Positions 36,088 to 64,000 of a DNA stretch of 64,000 nt are shown piece after piece. Numbering within the stretch: the stretch's first letter is position 1; each line of letters starts with the position of its first letter. A program made the translations under genes and the position numbers. The notes under the pieces are model-generated. The model saw only the letters and a program-made list of their open reading frames with translations, did not search any database and had not been told where the DNA came from. The stretch is from the NCBI RefSeq assembly GCF_055900595.2, contig NZ_CM148325.1; one strand, given 5' to 3'.

Positions 36088-36521
36088 CAGTGTTTCTCCT
36101 TTCGCCCGCCAGAGTAAAAAGCAACCGTTTACGTTATTGAAACTGTCTAAACATATGCTCGTGGAGTGCCAGTTTTTGCGAGGAAGGGGAGTTAGAGACA
36201 GGAATTGCGGAGGCAATCACATAATCGTGGTTAAACCACGAAAATGAGAAGAGAACCTGACAATGGAATTATCTGTAATTTTCTCATATTGATATTTCAT
36301 TAATCATTCTGGCATGTCGCACTCTCGCATTTAATCGTTTTTATCTGGATAGCGCTCTTTTGGTCGGCAATGTTGAAATAATGAAAGCGGCACAGATTGA
36401 GGGGTAATAATTTGAACTTAGTCACAAACTTATAATTAAAAAGTCATTCTACCTAATATATGCCCGTTTATTGCATCGCGAACTTTGAGAAGACATAACT
36501 CATTAAATGAAAGGGATGCAA

Positions 36522-38441
36522 ATGAATAAGTTTATCGCTGCTGAAGCTGCGGAATGTATAGGCTGTCATGCTTGTGAAATTGCCTGTGCGGTGGCACACA
36601 ATCAAGAAAACTGGCCGCTGAGTCACAGTGACTTTCGACCGCGTATCCACGTTGTAGGGAAAGGCCAGGCTGCGAATCCGGTGGCCTGTCATCACTGCAA
36701 CAATGCTCCTTGCGTTACGGCTTGTCCGGTTAATGCTCTGACTTTCCAGCCCGATAGCGTACAACTGGACGAGCAAAAATGTATTGGTTGTAAAAGATGC
36801 GCAATCGCTTGCCCCTTTGGCGTCGTTGAGATGGTCGATACGATTGCGCAGAAATGCGACCTTTGTAATCAGCGCAGTTCCGGCACGCAAGCCTGTATTG
36901 ACGTATGCCCAACACAGGCGTTACGGCTGATGGACGATAAAGGGTTGCAGCAGATAAAGGTGGCCCGCCAGCGCAAAACGGCAGCAGGAAAAGCGTCATC
37001 AGACGCTCAGCCATCTCGCAGTGCAGCGTTGCTCCCCGTTAACTCGCGTAAAGGCGCAGATAAAATTTCAGCGAGTGAACGGAAAACCCACTTTGGCGAA
37101 ATTTATTGCGGGCTGGATCCACAACAAGCGACTTATGAGAGTGACCGCTGTGTTTATTGTGCCGAAAAAGCTAACTGCAACTGGCATTGCCCGCTGCATA
37201 ACGCTATTCCGGATTACATCCGTCTGGTGCAGGAAGGAAAGATTATTGAAGCGGCAGAACTTTGCCACCAGACCAGTTCCTTACCAGAAATCTGCGGCAG
37301 GGTATGTCCACAGGACCGTCTTTGTGAAGGCGCATGTACTTTGAAAGATCACTCTGGCGCAGTCTCTATCGGGAATCTGGAACGCTACATCACCGATACC
37401 GCGTTGGCGATGGGCTGGCGTCCTGATGTCAGCCATGTTGTTCCCCGTATCGAAAAAGTGGCGGTGATTGGCGCAGGGCCTGCAGGGTTAGGGTGTGCTG
37501 ATATTCTGGCGCGCGCAGGAGTTCAGGTTGATGTCTTTGATCGCCATCCAGAAATTGGCGGTATGCTGACTTTTGGCATTCCTCCTTTCAAACTCGATAA
37601 AACAGTCTTAAGCCAGCGGCGTGAGATATTCACCGCAATGGGAATCGACTTTCATCTCAACTGTGAGATTGGCCGCGATATTACCTTTAGCGATTTAACT
37701 TCTGAATATGATGCAGTTTTCATCGGCGTGGGGACTTACGGGATGATGCGAGCAGATCTGCCGCATGAAGATGCGCCCGGTGTCATTCAGGCTCTACCGT
37801 TCCTGACTGCCCATACCCGCCAGTTGATGGGATTGCCGGAGTCTGAAGAGTATCCGCTGACGGATGTGGAAGGTAAGCGAGTCGTGGTATTGGGCGGTGG
37901 CGATACGACCATGGATTGTTTGCGGACTTCCATCCGCCTCAATGCCGCCAGCGTGACCTGCGCGTATCGTCGTGATGAAGTCAGTATGCCGGGCTCGCGC
38001 AAAGAGGTGGTCAATGCGCGCGAGGAAGGTGTCGAGTTTCAGTTCAATGTTCAGCCGCAATATATCGCTTGTGACGAAGATGGGCGTTTAACTGCGGTGG
38101 GCCTTATTCGTACCGCTATGGGTGAGCCGGGTCCGGATGGACGCCGTCGTCCTCGTCCGGTAGCGGGTTCAGAGTTTGAGCTGCCTGCCGATGTTCTGAT
38201 TATGGCCTTTGGTTTCCAGGCGCATGCCATGCCGTGGTTGCAAGGCAGCGGAATTAAGCTCGATAAATGGGGCCTGATTCAAACCGGGGACGTCGGGTAT
38301 TTACCCACCCAGACGCATCTGAAAAAAGTCTTTGCTGGTGGGGATGCAGTTCATGGCGCGGATCTGGTTGTCACTGCAATGGCCGCAGGAAGGCAGGCGG
38401 CGCGCGATATGTTAACTCTGTTTGATACGAAGGCATCGTGA
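36522..38441 (+). CDS. ygfT: Fe-S / FAD-NAD(P) oxidoreductase YgfT (N-terminal 4x[4Fe-4S] ferredoxin module fused to a GltD-like domain)
   Basis: ORF 36507..38441; Cys clusters [37 protein letters not shown] and CDLC, followed by the dinucleotide-binding motif VIGAGPAG. Confidence 0.85.
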
Positions 38442-38929
38442 TGAAATCGTTAATTATCGTTAATCCGGCTGACTGTATTGGCTGCCGTACTTGTGAAGTG
38501 GCCTGTGTGGTCGCTCACCCTTCAGAACAGGAGTTGAATGCCGATGTCTTTTTACCCCGGCTGAAGGTACAGCGACTGGACTGCATCAGTGCGCCGGTGA
38601 TGTGCCATCAGTGTGAAAACGCCCCTTGTGTTGGCGCTTGCCCCGTGGGAGCGCTGACGATGGGCGAGCAGGTGGTGCAGGCCAATTCTGCCCGTTGTAT
38701 TGGCTGTCAGAGTTGCGTCAGTGCGTGTCCGTTTGGGATGATCACCATTCAGTCGTTGCCGGGGGATACCCGGCAACAAATTGTGAAATGCGATCTCTGT
38801 GAACAGCGGGAAGAGGGGCCTGCCTGCGTTGAATCTTGCCCGACACAGGCGCTGCAGTTGCTTACTGAAAGAGAACTCAGGCTAGTCCGCCAGCAGCGTA
38901 TTGTTGCCAGCGGTGAGAATCCTCTCTGA
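38438..38929 (+). CDS. ygfS: 4Fe-4S ferredoxin-type protein YgfS
   Basis: 163-aa ORF with the same four Cys-cluster arrangement as the YgfT N-terminus; start overlaps the ygfT stop. Confidence 0.85.
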
Positions 38930-38933
38930 AAGA

Positions 38934-38961
38934 ATTCTCCGCGCTGAAAGGCGCGGAGAAT
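38934..38961. terminator. bidirectional hairpin between convergent ygfS and ghxQ
   Basis: attctccgcgc-tgaaag-gcgcggagaat perfect inverted repeat. Confidence 0.5.
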
Positions 38962-38964
38962 CTA

Positions 38965-40332
38965 TTAGATAGCCCATCCACCCGCGTAAAATGCGACCAG
39001 TGCGGCAGTAATGATTACCGTACCAATATTCAGCTTTTTCCATTCGCGTGCAAAGACGCGGCCTACGACCAGTGTCACAAAGCCCAGCATAATACCGGTA
39101 ACGATATTACAAGTCAGAACGATAAACACGGCACACACCAGGCCAGCCATTGCGTCAATAAAATCGTTGAAATCCAGCTTCGAGACGTTACTTAACATCA
39201 GCAAACCTACGTACATCAGAGCGGGTGCAGTGGCGTAACCAGGGATCAAAAATGACAGTGGTGATAAAAACAGAATCAACAGGAATAACGCCCCCACTAC
39301 GGTTGCGGTCAACCCTGTTTTACCCCCGGCGGCGGTTCCTGCCGCTGATTCGATATAAACCGCTGCGGGCGCAGCACCCACCAGGCCGGAGAATATTGAA
39401 CTTACTGAGTCACTGGTCAGGGCTTTACCGCCGTTGATGATCTGGTTGTCTTTATCTAACAAATTCGCCTGACCGGCGACGGCACGGATGGTACCGGTGG
39501 CGTCGAACACTGCGGTCATCACCAATGCCAGTACACTCGGAAGTACAGTTGGCTGGAGTGCCCCCATAATATCGAGGCTGAAAATCAGAGACTTACCATC
39601 TTCGCCAGTCAGACTGGGCATCGCCACCAGACCGTGGTACTTCACCGCTGGATCAAAGATTAAGCCGATGATCGAAATTGCAATAATCACCAACAAGATC
39701 CCGCCAGGTACGCGGCACTTTTCCAGACCGAAGATGACCGCCAGACCCAGTAAGCTCATCATCACCGGGAAGGAGGTAAACGCGCCGAGCGCCACCGGCA
39801 AGCCTTCAATCGGGTTTTTGATAACCATTCCCACACCGTTAGCAGCAATCAGCAGCAGAAACAGGCCGATACCGATACCTGTGCCGTGAGCGATACCCAT
39901 CGGTAAATTACGTAATATCCAGGTTCGCACACCGGTTACAGAAATGGCGGTGAAGATGACGCCCATCAGAAAGACCGCACCCAGTGCGACAGGAACGCTA
40001 ATTTGTTGCCCGAGTACCAGACTGAATGCGGTAAATGCCGTTAAGGAAATAGCGCAACCAATCGCCATTGGCAAGTTGGCCCACAAGCCCATCAGCAACG
40101 AGCCGAAGCCCGCGACCAGACAGGTGGCAACAAACACAGCTGCGGGAGGAAAACCTGCTTTGCCCAGCATTCCCGGAACGACGATAACGGAATAAACCAT
40201 GGCCAGAAAGGTCGTTAAGCCAGCCAGTACTTCCTGACGAACGGTACTGCCACGAGCGGTAATTTTAAAATAATTATCCAGTGCGCCTTGTGGCTTTGGT
40301 GCGTCCGGTGTTTGTAGGATGTCTCCAGACAT
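38965..40332 (-). CDS. ghxQ: guanine/hypoxanthine permease (AzgA-like NCS2)
   Basis: 455-aa polytopic [37 protein letters not shown]. Confidence 0.88.
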
Positions 40333-40367
40333 AATGATGTCCTCACGAGGATGTTAAAGTTTTATTA

Positions 40368-41687
40368 TTAGTTGCGTTCGTACACCAGACGACCATCAAC
40401 GTAGGTGCGGTAGATCGAACGGTCATCGCCCAACGTCATCATCACGAACAATTTGTCGACTAAAGAAACAGAGTTGTCATAGCGCAGCTGCTGTAGCGGG
40501 GTGGCGGTGGGTTCCATCACCACGAAATCAGCCTCTTTGCCAGGTAAAAAGTTGCCAATCAAATCGTCAAGGCCCAGAGATTTCGCCCCGCCGAGCGTGG
40601 CAAGGTAAAACGCTTCATATGCCGAGAGGCGATAGCCTTGTAATTGCAACACTTTGTAGGCTTCGTTCAGCGTTTGCAGCATGTTGAAAGTTGTTCCTGC
40701 GCCAATGTCAGTCCCCATGCCCACTTTGACTTTCTTCTGCCATGCTTTTTTCAAGTTGAATAAGCCACTGCCGAGGTAAAGGTTGGAGGTAGGACAGAAA
40801 GCAATGCTGGATTTGGTTTCGCTGAGACGATCCCACTCTTTCTCTTCGAGATGGACGCAGTGAGCAAAGACACAATTTTTACCTGTCAGACCGTACTGAT
40901 GGTAAACATCCAGATAACCATCATGGTCAGGATAAAGCGATTTGACCCAGGCAATTTCATCTTTATTTTCACAAAGATGGGTATGTACCCATGTATCGGG
41001 ATACTCTTCTTTCAGGCGTTGCGCCATCGCCATCTGTTCAGGAGATGAGGTTGGGGCGAAGCGTGGCGTAATCGCATACAACAGACGACCATTTTTGTGC
41101 CAGCGTTCGATCAGTTCTTTGCTTTGGTGATAGCTGCTTTCGGCAGTGTCGAGCAGATAATCCGGTGCGTTGCGGTCCATCATCACCTTACCGGCAATCA
41201 TACGCATATTGATATGACTGGCGGCTTCAAACAGCGCATCAACGGATTGCGGATGAACGGTACCAAACACCAACGCTGTGGTGGTTCCGTTACGTAAAAG
41301 CTGCTTGATGAAGAACGCCGACATTTCGCGGGCGTACTCTAAATCCTCATAACGACGTTCAGTAGGGAAGGTGTGTTTATTCAACCACTCCAACAATTGT
41401 TCACCATAGGCCCCAACCATTTCACTTTGCGGATAATGGATATGTGTATCGACAAAGCCCGGTACTACCAGTTTGCCGCGATAGTCGCGCACGCGAATGG
41501 TGTCAGGAATTTGATGCTTTCCGTCTTCCCATTCGCCAAACCATTCCACTTTTCCCTGTTTAATGAGTAATAAACCATCCTCAATAAACCGCAGCGCAGA
41601 GGCAATCTCTTCCGGGTTATCGACCGTACGGGTGACATCAATAAAACTGCCTCGTACCGCTTTTAACGTGTGTTCTCCTGACATCAT
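40368..41687 (-). CDS. guaD: guanine deaminase
   Basis: ORF 40368..41807; 439 aa beginning MMSGEHTLKAVRGSFIDV; amidohydrolase HxH motif. Confidence 0.9.
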   Translation of the reverse strand: MMSGEHTLKAVRGSFIDVTRTVDNPEEIASALRFIEDGLLLIKQGKVEWFGEWEDGKHQIPDTIRVRDYRGKLVVPGFVDTHIHYPQSEMVGAYGEQLLEWLNKHTFPTERRYEDLEYAREMSAFFIKQLLRNGTTTALVFGTVHPQSVDALFEAASHINMRMIAGKVMMDRNAPDYLLDTAESSYHQSKELIERWHKNGRLLYAITPRFAPTSSPEQMAMAQRLKEEYPDTWVHTHLCENKDEIAWVKSLYPDHDGYLDVYHQYGLTGKNCVFAHCVHLEEKEWDRLSETKSSIAFCPTSNLYLGSGLFNLKKAWQKKVKVGMGTDIGAGTTFNMLQTLNEAYKVLQLQGYRLSAYEAFYLATLGGAKSLGLDDLIGNFLPGKEADFVVMEPTATPLQQLRYDNSVSLVDKLFVMMTLGDDRSIYRTYVDGRLVYERN

Positions 41688-41701
41688 TGACTCCTTTACT
41701 G

Positions 41702-43102
41702 TTAATCCATCTCTTCCGCTGAGGTAATACCAGGCAGAACGTTTTCCTGTCGGTAGCCACCAGGGAGAATAATATTTAATAAAATCGCAGTTAACCCACC
41801 AGCACAAATAGGGTTTTCAACTAATACATAAATAGAGGCTGGCAATATTTTAAAAATTTCCGGATCGTAGGAGACGCCAAGCCCTAAACCTAAAGAAGTG
41901 GCGACAATAAGTGTTTCACGGCGCTTTAATCCGTTGGTGATGATGATGCGAATCCCAGCGATGGCAATCATGGAAAACATCAACGTCATTGCGCCTCCCA
42001 GAACAGCCGAGGGAATGGTCGTGAAGAAGCCGCCAATCATCGGAAACAAGCCGAGAATAACCAACATGACCGCGATGGTTCGCCCGACATAACGTGAAGC
42101 GACACCGGTCATCTGAATAACCCCATTATTTTGCGCAAACGTGGTTAACGGTAATGAACCGACAGCGGAAGCGATAACCGAAACCAGGCCATCTGCCAGT
42201 ACGCCGCCTTTCAGACGCGACTGATACTCTTCTCCCTGGATGGGGCGGCGGGAAACCATTGCCGTGGCGGTGATATCACCGACAGCTTCCAGCACGCTAA
42301 GCAAATAAATCGTGCCGACCACCAGGAACTGATGGAAGCTGAAACTAAACCCGTATTTGAACGGATGCGGGATGGTGATTAACGGCAAATTGCGCATACT
42401 GCTGAAATCCACCATGCCCAGGCATAACGACGCGATATAACCGACACATAGCCCAATGGCAATCCCTCCCATGCGTAGTAACGGACTGCGGCAGCAGTTA
42501 AAGCCGATCACCACAATCAAAACCAATAAACCAACGCCGAGATGTTCGTAATTGCCGAACGTACCGCTGCTTTTGGCAGCAAATCCTCCACCAAAATCGA
42601 TAATGCCGACTTTAATCAGGCTTAAGCCGATCATCAGCACCACAATGCCGCTAACGGTAGGTGTAATAACCCGACGTAAATAGGGCAGGATAAAAGAAGA
42701 GCCGACAACCAGAAATGCGCCAACGAAGGAGACGCCGAGAAGCGACGACATGATTAACTCTTCGTGAAAACCATCGCTTTTCATGCTGCTGCCCAGCGCA
42801 ATCATGACTGTAACAAATGAAAAATTGACTGACTGAATTGAGAGTAGGCCAGAACCGACGATGCCATAGCGGTTTACCTGTAACCAGGTACCAATACCAG
42901 AGGCGATCATCGCCATAGAAACAAGATAGGCGGTTGTTTCAGCGGAAAGCTGTAAGGCCGCACCGACGATTAACGCAGGGGTTACCATCGGAACGAAAAT
43001 TGCCAACAGATGGGTAATGGCACCAACGAGAGCCTGATGAAAGGGAGGGCGATCCTCCAGTTCAAATATAAGGTCAGAACCTGCATGGTTTATATCAGAC
43101 AT
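41702..43102 (-). CDS. xanQ: xanthine permease (NCS2/NAT)
   Basis: ORF 41702..43159; 466 aa beginning MSDINHAGSDLIFELEDRPPFHQALVGA. Confidence 0.88.
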   Translation of the reverse strand: MSDINHAGSDLIFELEDRPPFHQALVGAITHLLAIFVPMVTPALIVGAALQLSAETTAYLVSMAMIASGIGTWLQVNRYGIVGSGLLSIQSVNFSFVTVMIALGSSMKSDGFHEELIMSSLLGVSFVGAFLVVGSSFILPYLRRVITPTVSGIVVLMIGLSLIKVGIIDFGGGFAAKSSGTFGNYEHLGVGLLVLIVVIGFNCCRSPLLRMGGIAIGLCVGYIASLCLGMVDFSSMRNLPLITIPHPFKYGFSFSFHQFLVVGTIYLLSVLEAVGDITATAMVSRRPIQGEEYQSRLKGGVLADGLVSVIASAVGSLPLTTFAQNNGVIQMTGVASRYVGRTIAVMLVILGLFPMIGGFFTTIPSAVLGGAMTLMFSMIAIAGIRIIITNGLKRRETLIVATSLGLGLGVSYDPEIFKILPASIYVLVENPICAGGLTAILLNIILPGGYRQENVLPGITSAEEMD

Positions 43103-43266
43103 CCCTTCACTCCTTTTAAAGTAAATTTGATCATCTGAATCAGTAAAATAAATTCCCACGAATTTGGGGCGCAGGACGCCTTGAGAACGGCTTATCTCAT
43201 TTTCGCAGTCACTATTTAGTCATCGTTCAAACAGAGAAACAGGCCGCCGAAGCGGCCATTTATTAT

Positions 43267-46137
43267 TTATATTTTTTCCAGCGCGGTGAGTATTTTCTCC
43301 GGTGTGAAATGCCATTCGCGTAACCAGATGCCGCAGGCATCGTGAATTGCGGTAGCAATCGCCGGAGCTGCGCCATTTACACCGATTTCTGAGATTGATT
43401 TCGCCCCGAATGGGCCGACTTTATCGTCGCTCGGCACCAGCACAGCGCGGAAATCACGCGGAATGTCACCAATTTTCGGTGCGCCGTAACTGCGTAAATC
43501 ACGCGTTAACGGGTGGCCTTCGGCGTCATAAATGATTTCTTCGCTCATACTGTGCCCGATAGCACGCAGGGTGGCACCGTAGATTTGTCCCAACGCTAAC
43601 TCTGGATTGACCGGTGTACCGCAGTCCAGCAAGGCATAGAATTTATCCAGGCGGATTTCACCCGTACGTGTGTTGACGGCAACTTCAGCAAAGTTTGCGC
43701 CATACGGGAAGGCGAAATCAGGCGTGATATAACTGGCAGTTCCCACCAGTGAACCAAAACCGGTGCCGGTTTCGCCTTTATGGGCAATATCACCGAAACT
43801 AACTTCGCCTTTCTTGCCGCGAACGACACCCGGCGTTGCCAGTTGAACATCCTCCAGGGGTTCCCCCAGCATTTGTGCACCGTGGAACAGGATTTTCTCT
43901 CGGAGATTTTCTGCCGCCATACGCGCCGCGTTGCCGGAGAAACATGTACCGGACGAGGCATATGCGCCTTTATCAAACAGCGCATGATCGGTATCACCGG
44001 AGATAACATGCACGTCCTGCGGTGGGCAGTGCAGCACTTCTGCTGCCAGTTTCGTCACAACCGTATCCAGACCAGTACCAATATCCGCACCGCCAGAATG
44101 AACGATAAAAGTACCGTCCGATTCCAGTTTGATCATGCAGTTAGCCTGATCAATATCCGGGATACCCGATTTCTGCATGATAATGGCGACGCCGCGACCG
44201 ATGTGCCAGTCACCATTTTGCGGTTTTGGTGAAGACCATTGGATCATCTCGCGACCCTGACGCAGGATCTCTTCCAGCGCGCAGCTGGCGGCGGAAGGAA
44301 CGGAGGTCGGCGCTTTACCTTCACCAATCGCACCGAGAATTTTCAGCTCTTGCCCTTCGTGTACCCGATTACGTTCGATAATTTCCAGTTGATCGATCTG
44401 TAACTGTTCAGCCAGTTCCGCTAATGCCATGGTGATAGCGAAGTTACCTTTCGGTGCGCCATAACCCTGATAAGCACCATTTGGGCAAATGTTGCTGTAG
44501 TAGGTGGTGACCTGGAAATCGACGTTATCGCACGGATATAACGGCAGCGACAGCGCCGGTCCGTTACACGGTACGGTGAGTGAGTGGTTGCCGTAAGGGC
44601 CTGTGTTGGCGCGGAAATCCATCTTCACAGCCGTCAGGCGACCATCTTTCTTTGCCCCCAGTTTGACGGTGACTTTCGCGACGTGACGAGAGGTGTTAGC
44701 AATAAACTGTTCTTCACGGGTGTAGCGGAACAGTACCGGACGCCCGGTCACGCAGGTTGCCCAGGCGCACACTTCTTCCAGCAGGATGTCCTGTTTAGAC
44801 CCAAAACCGCCGCCAACTCGCTCTTTAATGACATGAACTTTATGTTGTTTCATGCCCACGAGGCGCGCGACCTGGCGGCGTAAGTGCCATGGTACCTGGG
44901 TGGAGGCGTGGATAACCAGACGATCGCCGTCCATACGGGTAAAGCAGATATGAGTTTCAGTCGGGCATTGCTGCGCCTGAGTTGAGTTATAGGTTCGCTC
45001 AATGATCACATCGGCATCGGCAAAGCCTTTATCCATATCGCCAATATGACCATGAATACTGGCGGCGATATTTTTACGAGGGCGAGAACCGATAGGGAAG
45101 TTGATAATCATATGCTCGCCGCGCTGGGCTGCATGGCTGTTATCGTCTTCCAGAGTGTCTGGCGCACCCGCCACATACACCACCGGTTCATCGTGTACGA
45201 CAGGCGCATCTTCCGCCATTGCCTCGTCAATCGACATTACAGGCTTAAGCACTTCATATTCAACGTCGATGAGCTTCAGTGCTTCGAGCGCAATTTCTTC
45301 ACTTTCAGCGACTACCGCAGCAACGCGATCGCCGACGTGACGCATTTTCTTGCCGAACATACGGCGGTCAAGCGGTGACGGTTCCGGTGCGCTCTGACCA
45401 CCCGGGGTGTAGTAGATATCCGGGCAATTCAGATGAGTAATAACGTGAACGACGCCTGGTAAGGCTTCAGCTTTGCTGACATCCAGGTGAGTAATCAGTG
45501 CGTGAGCGTGAGGGCTACGTAACATTTTAATGACGCAGGCGTCAGCCGTTACGCGGTCTTCAACATAGCAGGGTTTCGCCTGCACCATTTTTGCGGCATC
45601 AGTTTTAGGATAATGCTTACCAATGACTTCAAGGTCATCGCGGAAAGTCGGAGCGATATCAATGGTGGCCTGCGGGTTATTTTTACGTGCAACCGCCAGT
45701 TCAATGACCTGATAGTATTGTTGCCAGCCTGCATCGCGACTGAACAAACCAGAAAGCGCGTCGTCGATCTCTTCGCGGGTCGGTGCGGCGATACGCTCGA
45801 GCAGATCAGTGATAATCAGAGCAGCAGCTGGATCGTTATAACCAGACTGCACCACGCCAACATCAACCATTGCCTGTTGAACCAGACTTAACTCGTTCCA
45901 TTTTCCCAGAGACTCTGCGGTACGAATATTAGCCTTCTCTATCTGTGCGGCAATAAGTAAGGACGCGTTGACGATATTACCGTTAAAGATAATTGCGTCA
46001 GAACCGGCAAAACCGAATCCATCATCGCTGTTGCGTACAGAGTGCATTCCCATGTTAAACAACAGCTTTTGCACGTTTTCACCAGGATTAACGGTTAGCT
46101 CCTGGGGCGTGCCATTTAATGTAAAGTGGATGATCAT
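43267..46137 (-). CDS. xdhD: molybdopterin-containing hydroxylase, large subunit (xanthine dehydrogenase family, with N-terminal 2Fe-2S domain)
   Basis: 956-aa ORF. Confidence 0.88.
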   Translation of the reverse strand: MIIHFTLNGTPQELTVNPGENVQKLLFNMGMHSVRNSDDGFGFAGSDAIIFNGNIVNASLLIAAQIEKANIRTAESLGKWNELSLVQQAMVDVGVVQSGYNDPAAALIITDLLERIAAPTREEIDDALSGLFSRDAGWQQYYQVIELAVARKNNPQATIDIAPTFRDDLEVIGKHYPKTDAAKMVQAKPCYVEDRVTADACVIKMLRSPHAHALITHLDVSKAEALPGVVHVITHLNCPDIYYTPGGQSAPEPSPLDRRMFGKKMRHVGDRVAAVVAESEEIALEALKLIDVEYEVLKPVMSIDEAMAEDAPVVHDEPVVYVAGAPDTLEDDNSHAAQRGEHMIINFPIGSRPRKNIAASIHGHIGDMDKGFADADVIIERTYNSTQAQQCPTETHICFTRMDGDRLVIHASTQVPWHLRRQVARLVGMKQHKVHVIKERVGGGFGSKQDILLEEVCAWATCVTGRPVLFRYTREEQFIANTSRHVAKVTVKLGAKKDGRLTAVKMDFRANTGPYGNHSLTVPCNGPALSLPLYPCDNVDFQVTTYYSNICPNGAYQGYGAPKGNFAITMALAELAEQLQIDQLEIIERNRVHEGQELKILGAIGEGKAPTSVPSAASCALEEILRQGREMIQWSSPKPQNGDWHIGRGVAIIMQKSGIPDIDQANCMIKLESDGTFIVHSGGADIGTGLDTVVTKLAAEVLHCPPQDVHVISGDTDHALFDKGAYASSGTCFSGNAARMAAENLREKILFHGAQMLGEPLEDVQLATPGVVRGKKGEVSFGDIAHKGETGTGFGSLVGTASYITPDFAFPYGANFAEVAVNTRTGEIRLDKFYALLDCGTPVNPELALGQIYGATLRAIGHSMSEEIIYDAEGHPLTRDLRSYGAPKIGDIPRDFRAVLVPSDDKVGPFGAKSISEIGVNGAAPAIATAIHDACGIWLREWHFTPEKILTALEKI

Positions 46138-48292: not shown

Positions 48293-48294
48293 GA

Positions 48295-53166: not shown

Positions 53167-53213
53167 CGGCCCGGGTATTCCGGGTTACTGAAAGGATATC
53201 CATTGAGGTTGGT

Positions 53214-54839: not shown

Positions 54840-54879
54840 ATGAAAATGGCCGGATGGTATTACCCACCCGGCCTTTAAA

Positions 54880-55812
54880 TTACTGACAAATCACCGTTCC
54901 GGTTTTGCCTTCAATCCCTTCTTTCGCTTTGCTCAATACGGTAATCAGTGCTTCGCGTCCAGCGCGAGAGCGAGCAAACGAGGCGGCTGCTTCCACTTTA
55001 GGCAGCATAGAACCTTTCGCAAAATGACCTTCTTCGATAAAGCGTTCAGCATCGACCAATGACAGGCGGTCGAGCCACTGCTCATTCTCTTTACCGAAGT
55101 TAATGGCCACTTTTTCTACCGCGGTCAGAATGATCAGCATATCGGCATCAATCATTTCTGCTAAACGGGCACTGGCCCAGTCTTTATCGATAACCGCGCT
55201 GGCACCACGCAGATGGTTACCTTCACGAATAACAGGAATACCACCACCGCCAACGGTGATCACTACCTGGCCTGCATCTACCAGAGCTTTAACCGTTTCT
55301 TTTTCAATGATATCAACCGGTTTTGGCGAGGCAACAACACGGCGATAGCCGCGACCAGCATCTTCTTTCAGAGTGTAACCCTGTTTTGTCAGTTGCTCGG
55401 CTTCCTGCTCGGTAAAGAACGAACCGATTGGTTTGGTCGGGTTGAGGAATGCCGGATCGTTAGCGTCGACTTCGACCTGGGTAACCAGCGTTGCTACAGG
55501 TTTATTAATGCCACGAGAAAGCAGTTCTTCTCTTAAGGCGTTTTGTAGATCGTAACCAATATAACCCTGGCTTAAGGCAACACAGACAGACATCGGCAGC
55601 ATTGGCGAGTGCGCTTCCGTTTTTGCGGCAGCTTCAAAGGCCTGGTTAATCATGCCCACCTGCGGCCCGTTACCATGAGTGACGATGACCTCATGTCCCT
55701 GGGCAATTAAATCAACAATTGCCTGAGACGTAATTTTTACCGCTTTCATTTGTCCGGCTAGATCGTCGCCCAGCGCATTCCCGCCCAGGGCGAGAACAAT
55801 TTTCTTACTCAT
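54880..55812 (-). CDS. yqeA: carbamate kinase-like protein
   Basis: 310-aa ORF MSKKIVLALGGNALG (amino acid kinase family). Confidence 0.88.
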   Translation of the reverse strand: MSKKIVLALGGNALGDDLAGQMKAVKITSQAIVDLIAQGHEVIVTHGNGPQVGMINQAFEAAAKTEAHSPMLPMSVCVALSQGYIGYDLQNALREELLSRGINKPVATLVTQVEVDANDPAFLNPTKPIGSFFTEQEAEQLTKQGYTLKEDAGRGYRRVVASPKPVDIIEKETVKALVDAGQVVITVGGGGIPVIREGNHLRGASAVIDKDWASARLAEMIDADMLIILTAVEKVAINFGKENEQWLDRLSLVDAERFIEEGHFAKGSMLPKVEAAASFARSRAGREALITVLSKAKEGIEGKTGTVICQ

Positions 55813-55859
55813 TTTTCCTCACTCATCATTCTTGATTGTGTATAGATCCCTGGCAGTGG

Positions 55860-57245
55860 TTAGAGCACGGGAGGGACAAACGGTTTGCGTCGCAGGAAAC
55901 GACCTCGCCCGGCTTTACCTGTAAAGGTGCCGTCACAGAAAATCGTTTCACCACGGGATAATGTTCTGACAATTGCGCCCTGACAGGTAAAACCCTCCCA
56001 GGGCGAGTAGTCGGCGTTGTCGTGGAGATGGCGGTGTTGAATTTGTTGACTCTGACGTGGGTCGATAATTACCACATCACCATCTGAGCCGGGCGCTAAT
56101 AATCCTTTTTGTGGCCACAGGCCAAATAGCCTGGCGGGCATCGCACTGGTCAATTCAACAAAACGCTCCGGTGTGATACGTCCCGTCATCACGCCACTGG
56201 AGAACAGCAACTGCATGCGGTTTTCCACACCGGGCAAGCCATTTGGGCAGCGGCTGAAATCGCCTTTAGAAATTTGCTGGCGCTGGGCCATCGAGAAGGT
56301 GCAGTGATCGGTCGCCACTACGTCAATCGCACCATCACTAATGCCACACCACAGTTTGTCCTGCTCACGCACGTTACGCAGTGGTGGGCTAAGAATGAAC
56401 TTCATGCCGTCTTCTGTATCGTAACTGCGTTCGTCCAGCAGGAGATATTGCGGGCAGGTTTCAACCCAGACTGGCTGGTGATTCGCGCGGGCAAGACGCA
56501 GATAATCCAGACCTAAGCCGTTAGAGAGGTGGACGATATAGAGCGGGGCGTTACCGGCAATTTGTGCCAGGTTAATCATGCGTGCGATGGCTTCCGCTTC
56601 GCATTCCAGAGGGCGACTCAAGGCGTGATAGCGCGGCGCGGTTAACCCTGCGGCGATAAACTCCGCCCGCTTGCTGGCGATAGCCGCGTCATTTTCCGGG
56701 TGCACGGTGGTCAGCGCGCCGGACTCATGCAAGCGGCGTAACGCCTGCAAAACCTCGTCGTCGTTGAGTTTGTATTGATAGGTTAAATAGAGTTTAAAAC
56801 TGCTCAGTCCTTCTTCGACCATCATCGGAATTTCGTCGAGGATGGCGTGATTAATGTGCTGGATAACACCGTGAAAGCTGTAGTCAATAACCGCTTTATG
56901 GGCGGCATAACCACGATAAACTTCCAGTTGATGGCGTAACCGGCAGCCATTCGGGCCAAATCCCATATGGTCAATAATGGTTGTTGTACCGCCACACGCA
57001 GCTGCGCGGGTACCGGTAAAAAAATCATCACAACTGCGCGCGATGCCGACATCAATATTGAAATGCGTATGGACATCCACGCCGCCAGGGAAAACGTAAC
57101 AGCCAGTGGCATCAATTTCTTCATACGGGAGCTGCGGCGAAATATTGCTGCCCAATTGGCGAACAATCCCGCTCTCAATCAGCAAATCTTGTTTGGCTTG
57201 TCCATCTGCGTTAACGACAGTGCCGTTTTTGATCAATACGCGCAT
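55860..57245 (-). CDS. hyuA: D-phenylhydantoinase / dihydropyrimidinase-like cyclic amidohydrolase
   Basis: ORF 55860..57257; 461 aa beginning MRVLIKNGTVVNADGQ. Confidence 0.88.
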   Translation of the reverse strand: MRVLIKNGTVVNADGQAKQDLLIESGIVRQLGSNISPQLPYEEIDATGCYVFPGGVDVHTHFNIDVGIARSCDDFFTGTRAAACGGTTTIIDHMGFGPNGCRLRHQLEVYRGYAAHKAVIDYSFHGVIQHINHAILDEIPMMVEEGLSSFKLYLTYQYKLNDDEVLQALRRLHESGALTTVHPENDAAIASKRAEFIAAGLTAPRYHALSRPLECEAEAIARMINLAQIAGNAPLYIVHLSNGLGLDYLRLARANHQPVWVETCPQYLLLDERSYDTEDGMKFILSPPLRNVREQDKLWCGISDGAIDVVATDHCTFSMAQRQQISKGDFSRCPNGLPGVENRMQLLFSSGVMTGRITPERFVELTSAMPARLFGLWPQKGLLAPGSDGDVVIIDPRQSQQIQHRHLHDNADYSPWEGFTCQGAIVRTLSRGETIFCDGTFTGKAGRGRFLRRKPFVPPVL

Positions 57246-57297
57246 AGCAAACTCCAAAAACCCTCCGGCGAACCGGAGGGGAATAAGTGAAGAGTAA

Positions 57298-58509
57298 TTA
57301 TTCGGTTGCCAGCCAGCTTAACGGGATTGCAGCGTACATAGCGGCACAGGTCACCAGGTGAGATTTCCAGGTTTTTTCGTTAGGTGCGTGCGCTTCAGGT
57401 TCTTTACCAGGGCCAAAACCGATCACCGGAATGCCGTGACGACCCATGATGGAGACGCCGTTAGTTGAGAAGGTCCACTTATCAACAACCGGCGCTTTGC
57501 CAAACAGCCCTTCGTAGGCGTTCACCAGGGCTTTAACAGTGAAGTGATCTTCTTCCACTTTCCAGGTCGGGAAGTAGCATTCGGTTGGGTAAACCAGGCC
57601 AGTCCAGGAAGGACGGTCGTAGTTGTACATAGAAACAACCGCGTTAGCTTTCTGTACCGCAGGCAGGGCGCGGATTTCGTCCAGCGCGCCTTCCCAGGTT
57701 TCGCCCCAGGTCAGACGACGGTCAATTGAAACTGCGCAGCTGTCTGCTACAGCGCAACGGCTTGGAGATGTGAAGAAGATTTCAGAAACGGTGAGGGTGC
57801 CTTTGCCGAGGAATTCGTCATAGCCCAGGCGCTGGGAGAGTTCCTGCAATTCTCCAAGAATCGGACCCATTTTGAAAATGGCGTTATCACCGCGTTCTGG
57901 CGCAGAGCCGTGGCAGCTAACGCCCTGAACATCAATGCGAATTTCCATACGACCGCGTTGACCACGATATACCTGGCAGTCGGTTGGTTCGGTACTGACC
58001 ACAAATTCCGGGCGAATGCCAGATTGTTCAATAATGTACTGCCAGCACAGACCGTCGCAGTCTTCTTCCTGCACAGTGCCGGTGACCAGCAGGGTGTATT
58101 CATCTTCCAGACCGAGGTCTTTAATGATTTTACCGGCATAAACCATAGATGCCATGCCGCCTTCCTGGTCGGAAGTACCACGGCCGCCTATCAGCTCATC
58201 AGTTTCCATGCCTTCGTACGGATCGAAGTCCCAGTTTTTGATGTTGCCAATGCCGACGGTGTCGATATGCGCGTCCATCGCCACCAGACGCGGGCCGTGA
58301 CCGATATAACCGAGCACGTTGCCCATCGGGTCGATTTCAACTTTATCGAAGCCGACTTTTTCCATCTCTTCTTTAATACGATGCACTACGCGTTTTTCGT
58401 CGCAGCTTTCGCTGGGGATCGCAACCATGTCGCGCAGGAAGCGAGTCATGTCTGCCTGGTAATCTCTTGCTTTTTCAAGAATCAGTTTGAATGGAATATT
58501 CTTAGCCAT
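57298..58509 (-). CDS. ygeY: M20-family peptidase / amidohydrolase YgeY
   Basis: 403-aa ORF. Confidence 0.88.
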
Positions 58510-58566
58510 TATTTTTCTCCAGATTTTTTACTCCCCGTTTGGCGGGGAGCAGTTCCAATAGGGTGA

Positions 58567-59763
58567 TTAAGGTGCTACAGAGTGTTTGCCTTCCCAGACA
58601 ACTTCGCGGTAGTGCTTCACGTCGGTGTCGCCTTCAGTGCTGATAACCAGCACCACGGCATCTTTGTTCAGCGCTAGTTTTTCCATCAGGCTTTGACGTT
58701 GCGGGTGATAATGAACCGCCGCGAGAACGCCCAAACCGACAGCGCCGGATTCACCGGAGATGATGCGCGGGTCGTTGCCGTACGGATTACCCAGCACGCG
58801 CATACCTAATGCGGCAACGCTGTCCTGGCAGGAGATGAATTGGGTGGCGCAGTTACGTAGAATCTCCCAGCCCAGCGGGTTAGGTTCGCCGCAGGCCAGA
58901 CCCGCCATGATGGTGGCCATATCGCCGCCAACGTTGACGATGTCGCCTTTGACGCCGGAGCGATAAATACAGTCAGCTTTGTCAGGTTCAACAATAATGC
59001 TGTGCAGATTTTGCGGGCTGTAGACGTCGACCAGATAACCCAGTACGCCGCCGGCCATCGCGCCGACACCGGCTTGCAGCAGAACGTGAGTTGGGGTTAC
59101 GCCCATTTCACGCATTTGCTCGACGGCTTCATCTGCCAGAGTGGCATAGCCCTGCATGATCCAGGTTGGGATTTTGGTGTAGCCTTCCCAGGCGGTATCT
59201 TGCACCACTTCCCAGCCGTGTTGCTGCGCGTGTTGCATGGTCAGACGAACGGTATCGTCATAGTTCATATCAGTGACGATGCACTCGGCTCCGAGGTTCA
59301 GAATGGCGTCAACGCGTTCCTGAGCGGAACCTTTCGGCATGTAAATTACCGCGTTCTGACCGAGTTGCTGTGCTGCCCAGGCAACACCGCGCCCGTGGTT
59401 GCCGTCGGTCGTTGTAGCAAATGTCATTTTTTCGCCGATGGCACTTTTCAGATGCTCGAATGACAGTGTTTCGATATCAAGATGATATTTTTCGCACAAC
59501 AACTGAGCGATGGCATATGCGCCGCCGAGCATTTTGAATGCGTTCAGACCGAATCGTTTTGATTCGTCCTTAACGAGAATTTTTTTTACCCCAAAAAGGT
59601 TTGCGAGATCGTCCAGCGCGCAAAGTGGTGTTGGGCGATAGCCAGCAATTTTCTGGTGGAACTGGCGCGCCAGTTTTGCCTGGCTTTGCGAAAAGAGCGG
59701 TGATGTTTCGCCGTTGAAAAATTTGTTATCGGCGATATCAATCTTCAATGAGAAAACGGACAT
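58567..59763 (-). CDS. dpaL: diaminopropionate ammonia-lyase (PLP-dependent)
   Basis: 398-aa ORF (YgeX). Confidence 0.88.
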   Translation of the reverse strand: MSVFSLKIDIADNKFFNGETSPLFSQSQAKLARQFHQKIAGYRPTPLCALDDLANLFGVKKILVKDESKRFGLNAFKMLGGAYAIAQLLCEKYHLDIETLSFEHLKSAIGEKMTFATTTDGNHGRGVAWAAQQLGQNAVIYMPKGSAQERVDAILNLGAECIVTDMNYDDTVRLTMQHAQQHGWEVVQDTAWEGYTKIPTWIMQGYATLADEAVEQMREMGVTPTHVLLQAGVGAMAGGVLGYLVDVYSPQNLHSIIVEPDKADCIYRSGVKGDIVNVGGDMATIMAGLACGEPNPLGWEILRNCATQFISCQDSVAALGMRVLGNPYGNDPRIISGESGAVGLGVLAAVHYHPQRQSLMEKLALNKDAVVLVISTEGDTDVKHYREVVWEGKHSVAP

Positions 59764-59821
59764 ATCCTATCCTTTTGGCCTCTGGAAATAGAGAGCCGAC
59801 CTGTCGATCGGCCCGAGGGGG

Positions 59822-61012
59822 TTATTTCACGCGTTCTTGCGCTTCTTTCAGCAGTTGTTCGAGCAGTGCGCCTGGTTTGGAATATTTACGGGAAAGGATC
59901 ATTGCTGCGATGATGTATGGCTTCCAGCTGGCTTCTTTGTAGGTCGCGATACGGTATTTTTCGAATACGCCTTCAGTGACTTCACCTTCTTTGCAGGATA
60001 CGCCGCTGATATCTGCTGGCAGGCAGTGCATGTACAGGGCTTCGCCATCACGGGTCAGTTCCATCATCTCTTCAGTGCAATGCCAGTCTTTGTGTTGCGC
60101 GTTCTGTGCCAGACACTGTTTTTCCAGTGCTTTTAAGCCTTCGTGATCGTTCGCACGCAGCAGTTCAGTACGCTCTTCCATCACTTTGTAAGGTGCCCAT
60201 GACTTCGGATAAACGATGTCTGCGTCTTTGAAGGCTTCTTCCATGCTGGTGACCTGACGGAAGCTACCGCCAGAGGCTTTAGCATTATTTTTAGCTACTT
60301 CAACTACATCCGGGATCAAATCGTAGCCTTCCGGATGGGCCAGGGTGACATCCATACCGAAGCGGGTCATCAGGCCGATAATGCCTTGCGGTACAGAGAG
60401 CGGTTTGCCGTAGCTTGGCGAGTATGCCCAGGTCATGGCGATTTTTTTACCTTTCAGGTTTTCGAGCGAACCAAAGTGTTCACGCAACCATGCCAGGTCA
60501 GCCATTGACTGAGTCGGATGGTCGATATCGCATTGCAGGTTCACTAAAGCCGGACGCTGTGGAAGCACGCCCTGCTTGTAGCCGTCATCAAGCGCAGCGC
60601 CAACTTCACGCATATAGGCGTTACCTGCGCCCAGATACATATCGTCACGAATACCAATAGAGTCGGCGCAGAAGGAGATCATATTGGCGGTTTCACGTAC
60701 GGTTTCGCCGTGAGCGATTTGTGATTTGCCTTCGTCGAGATCTTGCTGTGCAAGGCCGAGCAGGTTAAGCGCGGAAGCATAAGAGAAGCGGGTACGGGTG
60801 GAGTTGTCGCGGAATACGGAAATACCTAATCCACTATTAAAGACTTTGGTTGAGATGTTTTCAGCACGCAGTGCTTTTAATGCTGCGGCAACGTCCAGTA
60901 CTTGTTTCAGTTCATCAGGCGTCTGTTCCCACGTTAACAAAAAATCTTTCTCGTGAAGGTGAGAGGTCAGCGAATTGATATCCTTAATCAGCTCATTAAC
61001 AGTTTTCATCAT
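59822..61012 (-). CDS. ygeW: carbamoyltransferase YgeW (ATCase/OTCase fold)
   Basis: 396-aa ORF MMKTVNELIKDINSLTSHLHEKDF with carbamoyl-phosphate-binding STRTR. Confidence 0.88.
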   Translation of the reverse strand: MMKTVNELIKDINSLTSHLHEKDFLLTWEQTPDELKQVLDVAAALKALRAENISTKVFNSGLGISVFRDNSTRTRFSYASALNLLGLAQQDLDEGKSQIAHGETVRETANMISFCADSIGIRDDMYLGAGNAYMREVGAALDDGYKQGVLPQRPALVNLQCDIDHPTQSMADLAWLREHFGSLENLKGKKIAMTWAYSPSYGKPLSVPQGIIGLMTRFGMDVTLAHPEGYDLIPDVVEVAKNNAKASGGSFRQVTSMEEAFKDADIVYPKSWAPYKVMEERTELLRANDHEGLKALEKQCLAQNAQHKDWHCTEEMMELTRDGEALYMHCLPADISGVSCKEGEVTEGVFEKYRIATYKEASWKPYIIAAMILSRKYSKPGALLEQLLKEAQERVK

Positions 61013-61103
61013 AAAGTCCCGGTAGTGGAATGACAGGCAAAGTGGTTTATTTCACTGTGACTTGCCAAAGTGATTGGTGTTTTCACAGCTATACCAGGGA
61101 CTA

Positions 61104-61118
61104 ACAATAAGTGTGCCA
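61104..61118 (-). promoter_or_regulatory. candidate sigma54 promoter for ygeW
   Basis: Minus-strand TGGCAC-actta-TTGT about 90 nt upstream of the ygeW ATG; -24 element perfect, -12 has GT instead of GC. Confidence 0.3.
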
Positions 61119-61487
61119 GAATTATCCACGCGGCTATAAAAGACTAATTTGACGGGTAATGTGTGGTGTAGATCACAAATTGATGCCAGCTTCCGGTTGT
61201 GTGTAAAATACGAAAACGTTTGGCTTTTTTTATTGCGTTGTTTATTTGCTGCTAAGTATCAGAAATAAGATAAAGGGGCAGGCTATCCCTCGTCAGTTTG
61301 ATAAACTCACCGCTGTAATTCTCATATTGATATAGAAATGTGATATCTCTTCCATAATTTCATTAGAAAGTGATAAAAACCTTATGTTTTTATCAAAGCC
61401 AATTTCGCCTGAGTTAATATCATGATGATCTGTGAACCATCAACGTCTTCAATGATCGACTTTTAAGTAAGTCTGGAAGGTAAAGCT

Positions 61488-63266: not shown

Positions 63267-63275
63267 CCTCAGTAA

Positions 63276-63299
63276 ATCCGGCCTGAGTTCAGGCCGGAT
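63276..63299 (+). terminator. hairpin terminator between convergent ygeV and xdhC
   Basis: atccggcctga-gt-tcaggccggat followed by atcctttt. Confidence 0.5.
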
Positions 63300-63305
63300 A
63301 TCCTT

Positions 63306-63785
63306 TTACTTCGTTTTCTCGCAATCCAGAACTGTATTTACAATCATCTGATACCCCGTGCAGCGACAAAGATTTCCCGCCAGGCCGCGACGAATCTCCG
63401 TAATAGTTAATGGCTTCTCGCGTGGTTTCGCCAGCATTGCCGTGGTAGCCATAATCAGGCCAGGCGTACAAAACCCGCACTGCACCGCGCCGGATTTCGC
63501 ATAAGCTTGCTGGACGTGAGAAAGTTTTCCGCCTTTCGCTTCACCTTCCAGCGTGCGGATTTCTTTGCCTTCAGCCCAGGCGGCAAGGTATAAGCAACTG
63601 TCTATCGCAGTACCGTCGACCAGCACCGTACAGGCACCACATTCACCCACGCAGCAACCTTGCTTGACGCTTAGCAGCCCTTGTTCGCGGAGTAATTCCG
63701 AGAGCGGCGTGCCTGGCGTGGCGTGAAGCTGAAAAGGTATCTCGTTAATGGTGCATTCGATGGTAATTGTTTCGCTGTGATTCAT
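63306..63785 (-). CDS. xdhC: xanthine dehydrogenase Fe-S subunit (2x[2Fe-2S])
   Basis: 159-aa ORF with [11 protein letters not shown] and CGFCTPG motifs. Confidence 0.88.
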
Positions 63786-64000
63786 TGCAGTTTTCCCCCC
63801 GCCGCGGCGACGGCTTCACTAATCACTTTTTTGGTCATCGTCTGGATGAGATGCAGACGAAACTCTTTGCTGGCCCGCCATGAAGAACGCGGGGCGACAT
63901 CCTGCAGGACTGATTCGCTGATGGCTTCCAGCGTTTGCAGGTTTAATGGCGCATTTTGTGCAGTTTGTTCGGCATGTTGGCAGCGAATCGGCGTTGGCGC
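63782..64000 (-). CDS. xdhB: xanthine dehydrogenase FAD-binding subunit, C-terminal 72 codons (5' end beyond window)
   Basis: Minus-strand frame open from the window edge to TGA at 63782-63784, ending ...[16 protein letters not shown]; stop overlaps the xdhC start (ATGA). Confidence 0.75.

Follow-up and report, generated by a model that had tools for sequence, protein, structure and literature searches.

The stretch of DNA analysed here (the window; 64,000 nucleotides of contig NZ_CM148325.1 from RefSeq assembly GCF_055900595.2) holds, between 34.6 and 64.0 kb, the counterpart of the E. coli K-12 block b2868-b2888. This block is very probably the E. coli purine-catabolic supercluster, which combines purine uptake with anaerobic, ATP-yielding urate degradation under the control of the regulator YgeV and sigma-54. 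The locus is well known and conserved, and since its enzymes were assigned to their steps in 2023-2025, its biochemistry is already known. Gut bacteria with the pathway remove urate secreted into the intestine, which gives it medical relevance, and E. coli Nissle overexpressing the cluster lowered serum urate in uricase-deficient mice (10.1101/2025.05.19.654654). As both the pathway and this relevance have been published, the enzyme biology of the window is not new. What we add is regulatory: a candidate YgeV enhancer motif equal to that of the clostridial activator DioR, a three-part promoter layout, and a predicted GAF sensor domain with three cysteines, GAF(Cys3), in YgeV. Such native control elements (YgeV enhancer, CRP site and sigma-54 promoter) are directly relevant to the engineering of urate-degrading probiotics.

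By megablast, positions 36507-56507 matched chromosomal sequence in 5211 of the 5426 complete E. coli genomes, with query coverage of at least 80% in 5146 of these 5211 and a top identity of 99.0%. When the K-12 proteins were compared with the window by tblastn, all 20 complete genes of the block gave full-length, gapless matches (95.8-100% identity), and none is disrupted. All tested products scored above the curated NCBIfam cut-offs. The gene order is the same in the window, its RefSeq best match and K-12 MG1655: uacT / ygfT-ygfS / ghxQ-guaD-xanQ / xdhD-ygfM-ssnA-ygfK / mocA / yqeC-yqeB / yqeA-hyuA-ygeY-ygeX-ygeW / ygeV / xdhC-xdhB-xdhA. K-12 MG1655 b2866-b2888 agrees with the window in genes, order and orientation, and its sigma-54 sites and candidate enhancers are identical. 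Two genes, mocA (G+C 0.437) and ygeV (G+C 0.459), are markedly richer in A+T than the surrounding enzyme genes (0.50-0.54), and MocA has the lowest protein identity to K-12 in the block. The genes of the block are as follows.

34639-36087, minus strand: uacT, urate:H+ symporter; 99.4% identical to K-12 UacT over 482 amino acids (aa)
36522-38441, plus strand: ygfT (uacF), fusion of a 4Fe-4S domain like that of HydN with a GltD-like NAD(P)H flavoprotein; NF009451 1501.8 bits (cut-off 1154), 99.4% identical to K-12
38441-38929, plus strand: ygfS, HydN-like ferredoxin of 162 aa
38965-40332, minus strand: ghxQ, guanine/hypoxanthine transporter; 99.8% identical to K-12
40368-41687, minus strand: guaD, guanine deaminase; TIGR02967 633 bits (cut-off 375), 99.3% identical to K-12
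41702-43102, minus strand: xanQ, xanthine:H+ symporter; 100% identical to K-12
43267-46137, minus strand: xdhD, Mo/Fe-S subunit of 2,8-dioxopurine dehydrogenase; TIGR03313 2114 bits (cut-off 1102), 99.1% identical to K-12
46134-46913, minus strand: ygfM, FAD subunit of XdhD; TIGR03312 486 bits
46964-48292, minus strand: ssnA, amidohydrolase for ring opening after YgfK; TIGR03314 739 bits
48295-51393, minus strand: ygfK, Fe-S flavoprotein that reductively dearomatises 2,8-dioxopurine; TIGR03315 1781 bits
51715-52293, minus strand: mocA, molybdenum cofactor cytidylyltransferase; TIGR03310 216 bits, 95.8% identical to K-12
52396-53166, plus strand: yqeC, selenium-cofactor accessory protein; TIGR03172 240 bits
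53214-54839, plus strand: yqeB, XdhC-like and selenium-dependent Mo-hydroxylase maturation domains; TIGR03309 417 bits
54880-55812, minus strand: yqeA, arcC-type carbamate kinase; TIGR00746 383 bits
55860-57245, minus strand: hyuA, hydantoinase; TIGR02033 677 bits
57298-58509, minus strand: ygeY, M20 hydrolase; TIGR03526 721 bits
58567-59763, minus strand: ygeX (dpaL), diaminopropionate ammonia-lyase; TIGR03528 651 bits
59822-61012, minus strand: ygeW, knotted carbamoyltransferase; NF005538 823 bits
61488-63266, plus strand: ygeV, sigma-54 enhancer-binding protein, GAF(Cys3)-PAS-AAA+-HTH_8; Pfam domains and a GAF fold model
63306-63785, minus strand: xdhC, Fe-S subunit of the xanthine dehydrogenase XdhABC; NF007387 335 bits
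63782-64000, minus strand: 3' end of xdhB, last 72 codons, running off the window; tblastn

An original prediction, made from the sequence alone, had described the block as conserved chromosome, which agrees with its presence in nearly all of these E. coli genomes. The genes it named are all there, but its list omitted ygeX, the exit enzyme of the pathway. It placed the start at 36507; uacT lies before that point, and 36507 is the first ATG of the ygfT open reading frame, whereas the K-12 ygfT start corresponds to 36522. Of the two molybdo-hydroxylase sets it proposed, xdhD-ygfM is complete, with the active-site Glu606 kept in XdhD, while the second lies mostly outside the window, which holds xdhC and 72 codons of xdhB; xdhA is beyond the window end, and xdhA and xdhB follow in the closest genome. 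YgfS had been counted among the large Fe-S flavoproteins, but is a ferredoxin-like protein of 162 aa. In NCBIfam it matches best to HydN and to the AegA and YgfT N-terminal domains, and it has been assigned to the HydN/YsaA paralogue group (PMC6004506).

The pathway itself is documented experimentally. E. coli converts labelled urate to acetate anaerobically (10.1101/2022.07.24.501321), and the route has been rebuilt stepwise in vitro with E. coli and clostridial enzymes (10.1101/2025.05.19.654654). In that reconstruction, XdhD and its co-purifying partner YgfM converted urate to 2,8-dioxopurine with NADH, YgfK and SsnA converted this to ureidomethyl-hydantoin with NAD(P)H, and HyuA opened the remaining ring to give 2,3-diureidopropionate; YgeW with phosphate produced albizziin, YgeY and YgeX took the pathway on to pyruvate, and E. 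coli xdhA, xdhD and ygfK mutants behaved as the pathway predicts. The same 2,8-dioxopurine pathway was reached independently, with ATP formed by E. coli YgeW and YqeA (10.1101/2025.04.24.650524), and the conversion of urate to pyruvate with ATP has been shown for K-12 and Nissle orthologues (10.1101/2025.05.19.654654, 10.1101/2025.04.24.650524). These studies bear out the anaerobic, ATP-yielding urate/purine route of the original prediction. They do not support its view of the block as the best place for unassigned biochemistry with steps still to be assigned, as in vitro assays and mutants have by now provided an enzyme for each catabolic step between urate and pyruvate.

By homology, the proteins of the window would act in the same way. 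UacT, XanQ and GhxQ would import urate, xanthine and guanine/hypoxanthine, respectively, and GuaD and XdhABC would funnel the imported purines to urate. XdhD-YgfM, a molybdenum hydroxylase presumably matured by MocA and YqeB/YqeC, would reduce urate to 2,8-dioxopurine, the ring of which would be reduced by YgfK and opened by SsnA to ureidomethyl-hydantoin, with HyuA then giving 2,3-diureidopropionate. From this, YgeW would phosphorolyse one ureido group to carbamoyl phosphate, from which the carbamate kinase YqeA would form ATP; YgeY would remove the other ureido group to leave 2,3-diaminopropionate, and YgeX would convert this to pyruvate and 2 NH3. YgfT-YgfS may feed formate-linked electrons into both reductive steps. 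That aegA, ygfT and ygeV take part in the formate-dependent use of urate is attributed to Iwadate and Kato (2019), as cited in 10.1101/2022.07.24.501321, and the alternative name of ygfT, uacF, was given for formate-dependent urate utilisation.

The original prediction also gave the block its own sigma-54 activator, in agreement with published data. In K-12, sigma-54 sites were found by chromatin immunoprecipitation sequencing (ChIP-seq) upstream of xdhA, ygeW, ygfK and ygfT (PMC4591121), and the three that fall in the window are matched exactly. There is also a peak for RpoN from genomic systematic evolution of ligands by exponential enrichment (gSELEX) in the ygeV/ygeW spacer (PMC8743547). 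A YgeV iModulon of purine genes has been published, together with a fall in ygfT expression in a ygeV mutant and the suggestion of ethanol as inducer (PMC10602906); uacT is a further member (PMC12132413). Any doubt that the block responds jointly to a purine is answered by the strong induction of both ygfK and ygfT by urate (10.1101/2022.07.24.501321).

At the three promoters inside the window, we found a common layout of a palindrome (the candidate YgeV upstream activating sequence, UAS), a CRP-like site and a sigma-54 promoter, made up of the following elements.

36281-36295, minus strand: candidate YgeV UAS ATATCAATATGAGAA, 164 bp upstream of the ygfT sigma-54 site, between the divergent genes uacT and ygfT
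36411-36426, plus strand: CRP-like site TTTGAACTTAGTCACA upstream of the ygfT promoter, one mismatch to TGTGA-N6-TCACA
36459-36475, plus strand: sigma-54 site for ygfT, weak, with an atypical -24 element; identical to ChIP-seq site OS32 TATGCCCGTTTATTGCA (PMC4591121), unchanged
51466-51482, minus strand: sigma-54 promoter of ygfK-ssnA-ygfM-xdhD; identical to ChIP-seq site OS31 GTGGTGCGATTGTTGCT (PMC4591121), unchanged
51545-51560, no strand assigned: CRP site TGTGAATGAACTCACA upstream of the ygfK promoter, a perfect match to the consensus
51650-51664, no strand assigned: candidate YgeV UAS, palindrome TTATCATTATGATAA, upstream of ygfK, with up to 3 mismatches to ATATCAATATGAGAA
61103-61119, minus strand: sigma-54 promoter of ygeW-ygeX-ygeY-hyuA-yqeA; identical to ChIP-seq site OS30 CTGGCACACTTATTGTT (PMC4591121), unchanged
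61162-61177, no strand assigned: CRP-like site TGTGGTGTAGATCACA upstream of the ygeW promoter, half-sites invariant in 8 E. coli alleles
61319-61333, minus strand: candidate YgeV UAS ATATCAATATGAGAA in the ygeW/ygeV spacer, exact 15-mer, invariant in 8 E. coli alleles

The exact 15-mer ATATCAATATGAGAA is thus common to the ygeW/ygeV and uacT/ygfT spacers, and the former has a weaker second copy at 61418-61430. In K-12 the motif also occurs twice upstream of xdhA, with at most 3 mismatches to the 15-mer. Its core is the palindrome TATCA-N3-TGA(T/G)A, which we found at all four sigma-54 promoters (ygeW, ygfK, ygfT and xdhA), the candidate sites lying about 100-200 bp upstream of the -24 element, with distances of about 165-200 bp for those of the three promoters in the window. 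Allowing up to 3 mismatches, there are 8 matches to the 15-mer in the window (1.5 expected) and 9 in the K-12 locus (1.1 expected); none of 100 shuffles reached the observed count in either. We suggest that YgeV would bind these palindromes, 100-200 bp upstream of each promoter, and would activate the three sigma-54 promoters in the window and that of xdhA just outside it. A native Crp site has been named in the ygeV-ygeW spacer and the pathway is glucose-repressed (10.1101/2025.05.19.654654), which the CRP site between enhancer and promoter would account for.

The palindrome links YgeV to DioR, which was predicted as a clostridial activator with its function listed as 'unknown' (Nie et al. 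2019, PMC6615313). The predicted DioR regulon comprises dpaL, ygeW-ygfK-ssnA-ygeY, yqeB, pbuX and xdh genes (PMC6615313), and the predicted sites in Clostridiales include ATTTATCATAATGATAAGG and AATTTTAAAAATGAGAATT (PMC6615313 supplement). The palindrome upstream of ygfK is identical at 14 of 15 bases to the core of a C. botulinum DioR site, TTATCATAATGATAA. We had found the E. coli motif independently of the DioR prediction, and the equivalence of the two motifs is new here. To compare regulators, we used loci from a genome scan with YgeV; the matches listed were all at most 50% identical and held no close enterobacterial orthologues, and the full-length relatives among them were 33-39% identical. 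A homologue search with YgeV returned near-identical E. coli variants and no intermediate relatives among the matches listed. In four of the scanned loci, the YgeV homologue adjoins genes of the urate pathway.

L003, Clostridium metagenome-assembled genome (MAG): adjoins a permease, xdhABC and ygeY
L005, Sedimentibacter: adjoins ygeX-ygeW-ygeY, then yqeA-ssnA and a permease
L012, Propionigenium (Fusobacteriota): adjoins ygeX-ygeY, then ssnA, a permease and hyuA
L007, Ruthenibacterium: adjoins ygeX

Near-consensus sigma-54 promoters lie directly upstream of the urate genes beside YgeV homologues. In Propionigenium, Sedimentibacter and two Clostridium MAG loci (L003 and L009), tandem perfect TATCA-N3-TGATA palindromes, mostly 18-21 bp apart, occur 100-285 bp upstream of these promoters; three of the loci with the palindrome are from Bacillota and one is from Fusobacteriota. 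E. coli YgeV and the proteins of L003, L005 and L012 have the same predicted recognition helix, LGIGIATLYRKI. Because the E. coli palindrome equals the DioR motif and the recognition helix is the same, we infer that the palindromes are YgeV enhancers and that YgeV is the enterobacterial DioR. A further full-length YgeV-like activator (38% identity) is found in Citrobacter werkmanii (L004, 7207-11743), where its only divergent neighbours are one gene like ygeX and one like ygeY, and the spacer contains two imperfect palindromes; the locus may represent a minimal module for diaminopropionate/ureido-amino acids under the same type of regulator.

We also looked at the architecture of YgeV. Its Pfam domains are PAS, the AAA+ sigma-54 interaction domain PF00158 (2e-70) with its lid, and HTH_8 PF02954 (3e-13), with intact Walker A (residue 300) and GAFTGA (residue 347) motifs. 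Residues 1-158 define a family of 613 representative clusters, mostly of 560-620-aa proteins with the same architecture. Three cysteines (C84, C87 and C93; CxxCx5C) and G111 are conserved at 99-100% both among 88 full-length representatives and in an alignment of 50 sequences; R41, G44-T45-G46 and P102 are nearly as conserved in both sets. By sequence, the sensor region matched PDB chains only in its PAS domain, with none for residues 1-160. An AlphaFold2 model of the N-terminus has a GAF fold (predicted local distance difference test score, pLDDT, 94.2; predicted template modelling score, pTM, 0.89), and its Foldseek matches comprise a free methionine-sulfoxide reductase as well as GAF domains, some of them from the sigma-54 activators Nlh1, Nlh2 and NifA. 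Free methionine-sulfoxide reductases use catalytic cysteines. The cysteine triad could carry a metal or Fe-S centre, serve as a redox disulfide or form the lining of a ligand pocket, and YgeV would sense its signal through this domain.

A known activator with some likeness to YgeV is NorR, a sigma-54 activator whose GAF domain holds non-haem iron. Both are one-component enhancer-binding proteins in which the GAF sensor could bind a metal, although the metal is hypothetical in YgeV, NorR is not known to have the CxxCx5C triad, and YgeV has an additional PAS domain. Perhaps YgeV belongs, with several hundred relatives, to a class of its own among one-component sigma-54 activators, in which the cysteine-triad GAF sensor may bind a metal or Fe-S centre or be a redox switch and would gate urate degradation to anoxic, purine-rich conditions. 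Sensor, enhancer and sigma-54 promoter would then be a single cassette that has stayed with the pathway in Bacillota, Fusobacteriota and Enterobacteria, with YgfT-YgfS as an enterobacterial add-on coupling formate oxidation to both reductive steps. We offer this picture tentatively.

The parallel with gut Bacillota extends to the enzymes. The reductive uricolysis clusters of C. sporogenes, C. difficile and E. faecalis share the XdhD-type hydroxylase, YgfK or an equivalent, SsnA, HyuA, YgeW with carbamate kinase, YgeY, YgeX and YqeB/C, as well as the GAF(Cys3)-PAS-AAA+-HTH sigma-54 activator, the predicted TATCA-N3-TGATA enhancer and -24/-12 promoters. E. coli XdhD uses NADH because the FAD subunit YgfM has been added; NAD(H) is not used by the clostridial counterpart. 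Also particular to E. coli are YgfT-YgfS, the three purine transporters, GuaD and the CRP sites, while C. difficile has a PydA-like enzyme instead of YgfK and a hydrolase instead of YgeW/YqeA. Two other pathways follow a related logic. The arginine deiminase pathway likewise gains substrate-level ATP from ureido phosphorolysis via carbamoyl phosphate and carbamate kinase, a comparison drawn by the authors of 10.1101/2025.04.24.650524, but its substrate is citrulline rather than 2,3-diureidopropionate, and YgeW belongs to a separate 'knotted' carbamoyltransferase family. The reductive pyrimidine pathway (PydA, PydB and PydC) also consists of a flavin-dependent dearomatising reduction, a cyclic amidohydrolase and ureido cleavage; the cofactors of YgfK are laid out much as in PydA, and SsnA is a relative of PydB (10.1101/2025.05.19.654654). 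Unlike in the Pyd pathway, a bicyclic purine is processed after molybdenum-dependent dehydroxylation, with two rings and two ureido groups.

Other functions have been proposed for parts of the block, and database names point to selenium. NCBIfam and RefSeq use 'putative selenate reductase subunit YgfK', 'Se_sel_red_Mo', 'Se_sel_red_FAD' and 'YgeY family selenium metabolism-linked hydrolase', which would make ygfK-ygfM-xdhD (ygfN) a selenate reductase and ssnA and ygeY general 'selenium metabolism' genes. The block was indeed tied to selD by phylogenetic profiling, its genes co-occurring with selD (Haft and Self 2008, PMC2276186); selD lies outside the window, and the accessory genes yqeB and yqeC are present beside the hydroxylase. 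In C. sporogenes the hydroxylase depends on SelD, selenium and molybdenum (10.1101/2025.04.24.650524), and in C. difficile growth is likewise SelD-dependent, and yqeB, though not yqeC, is needed for growth on urate and xanthine (Johnstone and Self 2024, PMC11448449). This selenium association would exist because the hydroxylase itself is selenium-dependent. The selenium names are older than the biochemistry, in which purified XdhD-YgfM reduces urate and YgfK with SsnA acts on the resulting 2,8-dioxopurine (10.1101/2025.05.19.654654). Selenate reduction as the main function is thus a very remote prospect and is already largely refuted: the label rests on names, whereas the published assays show purine substrates. 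We consider these names of YgfK, YgfM, XdhD, SsnA and YgeY to be out of date.

Two further alternatives concern the regulation. YgeV has been described as an orphan response regulator that senses indole (IsrR), and it could be mainly a regulator of virulence genes, its purine neighbourhood being incidental. In enterohaemorrhagic E. coli ygeV is among the genes most strongly induced by indole, and isrR mutants show altered LEE (locus of enterocyte effacement) expression and, in C. rodentium, attenuation (PMC9426417). That study leaves direct LEE control open, all four sigma-54 promoters with the shared palindrome belong to purine operons, the mutant and iModulon data concern purine genes (PMC10602906), and full-length YgeV homologues adjoin urate genes with the same enhancer motif in Bacillota and Fusobacteriota. 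No Response_reg match was found in YgeV among the best 25 of 29 Pfam domains with E ≤ 10, and since its GAF-PAS-AAA+-HTH architecture is without a receiver domain, the 'orphan response regulator' label is unsupported; a mainly virulence-related role seems improbable. It is somewhat easier to imagine, though still unlikely, that the TATCA-N3-TGATA palindromes are sites of another factor, such as IHF, FNR, ModE or a nucleoid protein. Their core, ATCAA, is similar to one half of the site for IHF or FNR, and IHF sites are common between enhancers and sigma-54 promoters. By eye, the second half of the IHF (TTR), FNR (TTGAT-N4-ATCAA) and ModE consensus is unmatched, and PurR, FNR, ModE and IHF were rejected as poor matches to the 15-mer. 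Exact identity over 15 nt also exceeds what degenerate IHF sites need, and in three phyla the motif goes together with YgeV/DioR homologues whose recognition helix is identical.

Several observations count against a purine supercluster controlled by YgeV as set out above, or limit it. The functions of the window proteins are read from their 96-100% identity to K-12 proteins, and we likewise infer, from sequence, that YgeV binds the palindromes. The YgeW product is disputed, being either 3-ureido-2-aminopropionate (albizziin) or 3-amino-2-ureidopropanoate (10.1101/2025.05.19.654654; 10.1101/2025.04.24.650524). Selenium dependence has been demonstrated for the clostridial XdhD-type enzyme, and would carry over to E. 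coli XdhD only by analogy. The formate link of YgfT-YgfS is unproven, because AegA, a paralogue of YgfT, showed no interaction with or effect on formate dehydrogenase H (FDH-H) (PMC6004506). The ygfT sigma-54 site is a very poor match to the consensus (3.5 bits with a position weight matrix), and as sigma-54-like matches over the whole window are at chance (14 vs 14.9 expected), only their positions are informative. Although ybiY is listed in the YgeV iModulon, its 131-bp upstream spacer (ybiY-fsaA in K-12) contains neither the palindrome nor a sigma-54 site. Finally, the enhancer, CRP half-sites and GG/TTGT promoter elements are invariant in the 8 E. coli spacer alleles, a comparison of low power; as about 10% of the spacer columns vary, the invariance of the 15-nt block is not significant alone.

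This ygeV-ygeW spacer (61013-61487) is unusually polymorphic. Only 11 of 5180 genomes are at least 99% identical to the window allele, which is about 96% identical to the common alleles, and 1018 are at 90-95%. The flanking proteins are more than 99% identical to K-12, and the variation in the spacer clusters between the proposed regulatory elements.

Copies of the palindrome and of the sigma-54 motif also occur within coding sequences. The palindrome is found as TATCAAGATGATA at 59475-59487 in ygeX, TTCTCAATGTGAGAA at 53040-53054 near the end of yqeC and ATATCAATATGCGTA at 41201-41215 in guaD. We considered the copy in yqeC as an enhancer for yqeB, which has a sigma-54 promoter in C. difficile (PMC11448449), and rejected it, as a scan for an internal sigma-54 promoter gave no -24/-12 match at 53055-53213 upstream of yqeB. 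The highest sigma-54 matrix score in the window (17.6 bits, CTGGCACGATTAGCGCA) is at 47538-47554 on the minus strand, inside ssnA and in the sense direction; neither this motif string nor 'ssnA' appears in the main text of PMC4591121. Other strong matches are at 60096-60112 (minus strand) inside ygeW and 43687-43703 (minus strand) near the 3' end of xdhD.

Two hairpins mark the ends of gene strings.

43242-43257, no strand assigned: GC-rich hairpin immediately past xdhD, from a scan for terminator-like sequences
54848-54873, no strand assigned: strong hairpin (terminator) between the convergent yqeB and yqeA, from a hairpin scan

The former is likely the end of the ygfK-ssnA-ygfM-xdhD operon, in which ygfK adjoins ssnA (46964-51393). 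The latter lies in the yqeA-yqeB spacer (54840-54879), where the window has one hairpin and is without the 180-bp insertion found in K-12, which resembles a repetitive extragenic palindrome or bacterial interspersed mosaic element (REP/BIME) and is flanked by a duplicated terminator hairpin, AGGCCGGGTGGGTAATACCATCCGGCC (K-12 locus 16395-16614). On the other side of this spacer, yqeA, hyuA, ygeY, ygeX and ygeW are contiguous on one strand (54880-61012), each above its curated NCBIfam cut-off. Terminator-like hairpins also lie within this string, a strong one with a T-run between ygeY and hyuA (57261-57280, minus strand) and a weaker one between ygeW and ygeX (59793-59814, minus strand), which suggests attenuation or sub-operons. 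Sigma-70 and terminator matches were at chance level overall in the window scans.

The remaining window, from yggE to idi, is ordinary E. coli chromosome. Rfam matches at gathering score elsewhere in the window were the ES036 small RNA (sRNA) at 21514-21556 (minus strand; barely above threshold), the STnc490 Hfq-binding sRNA at 9755-9878 (plus strand), 6S RNA (ssrS) at 11428-11611 (minus strand), and a SIB antitoxin RNA at 10629-10779 (minus strand), which adjoins ibsC.

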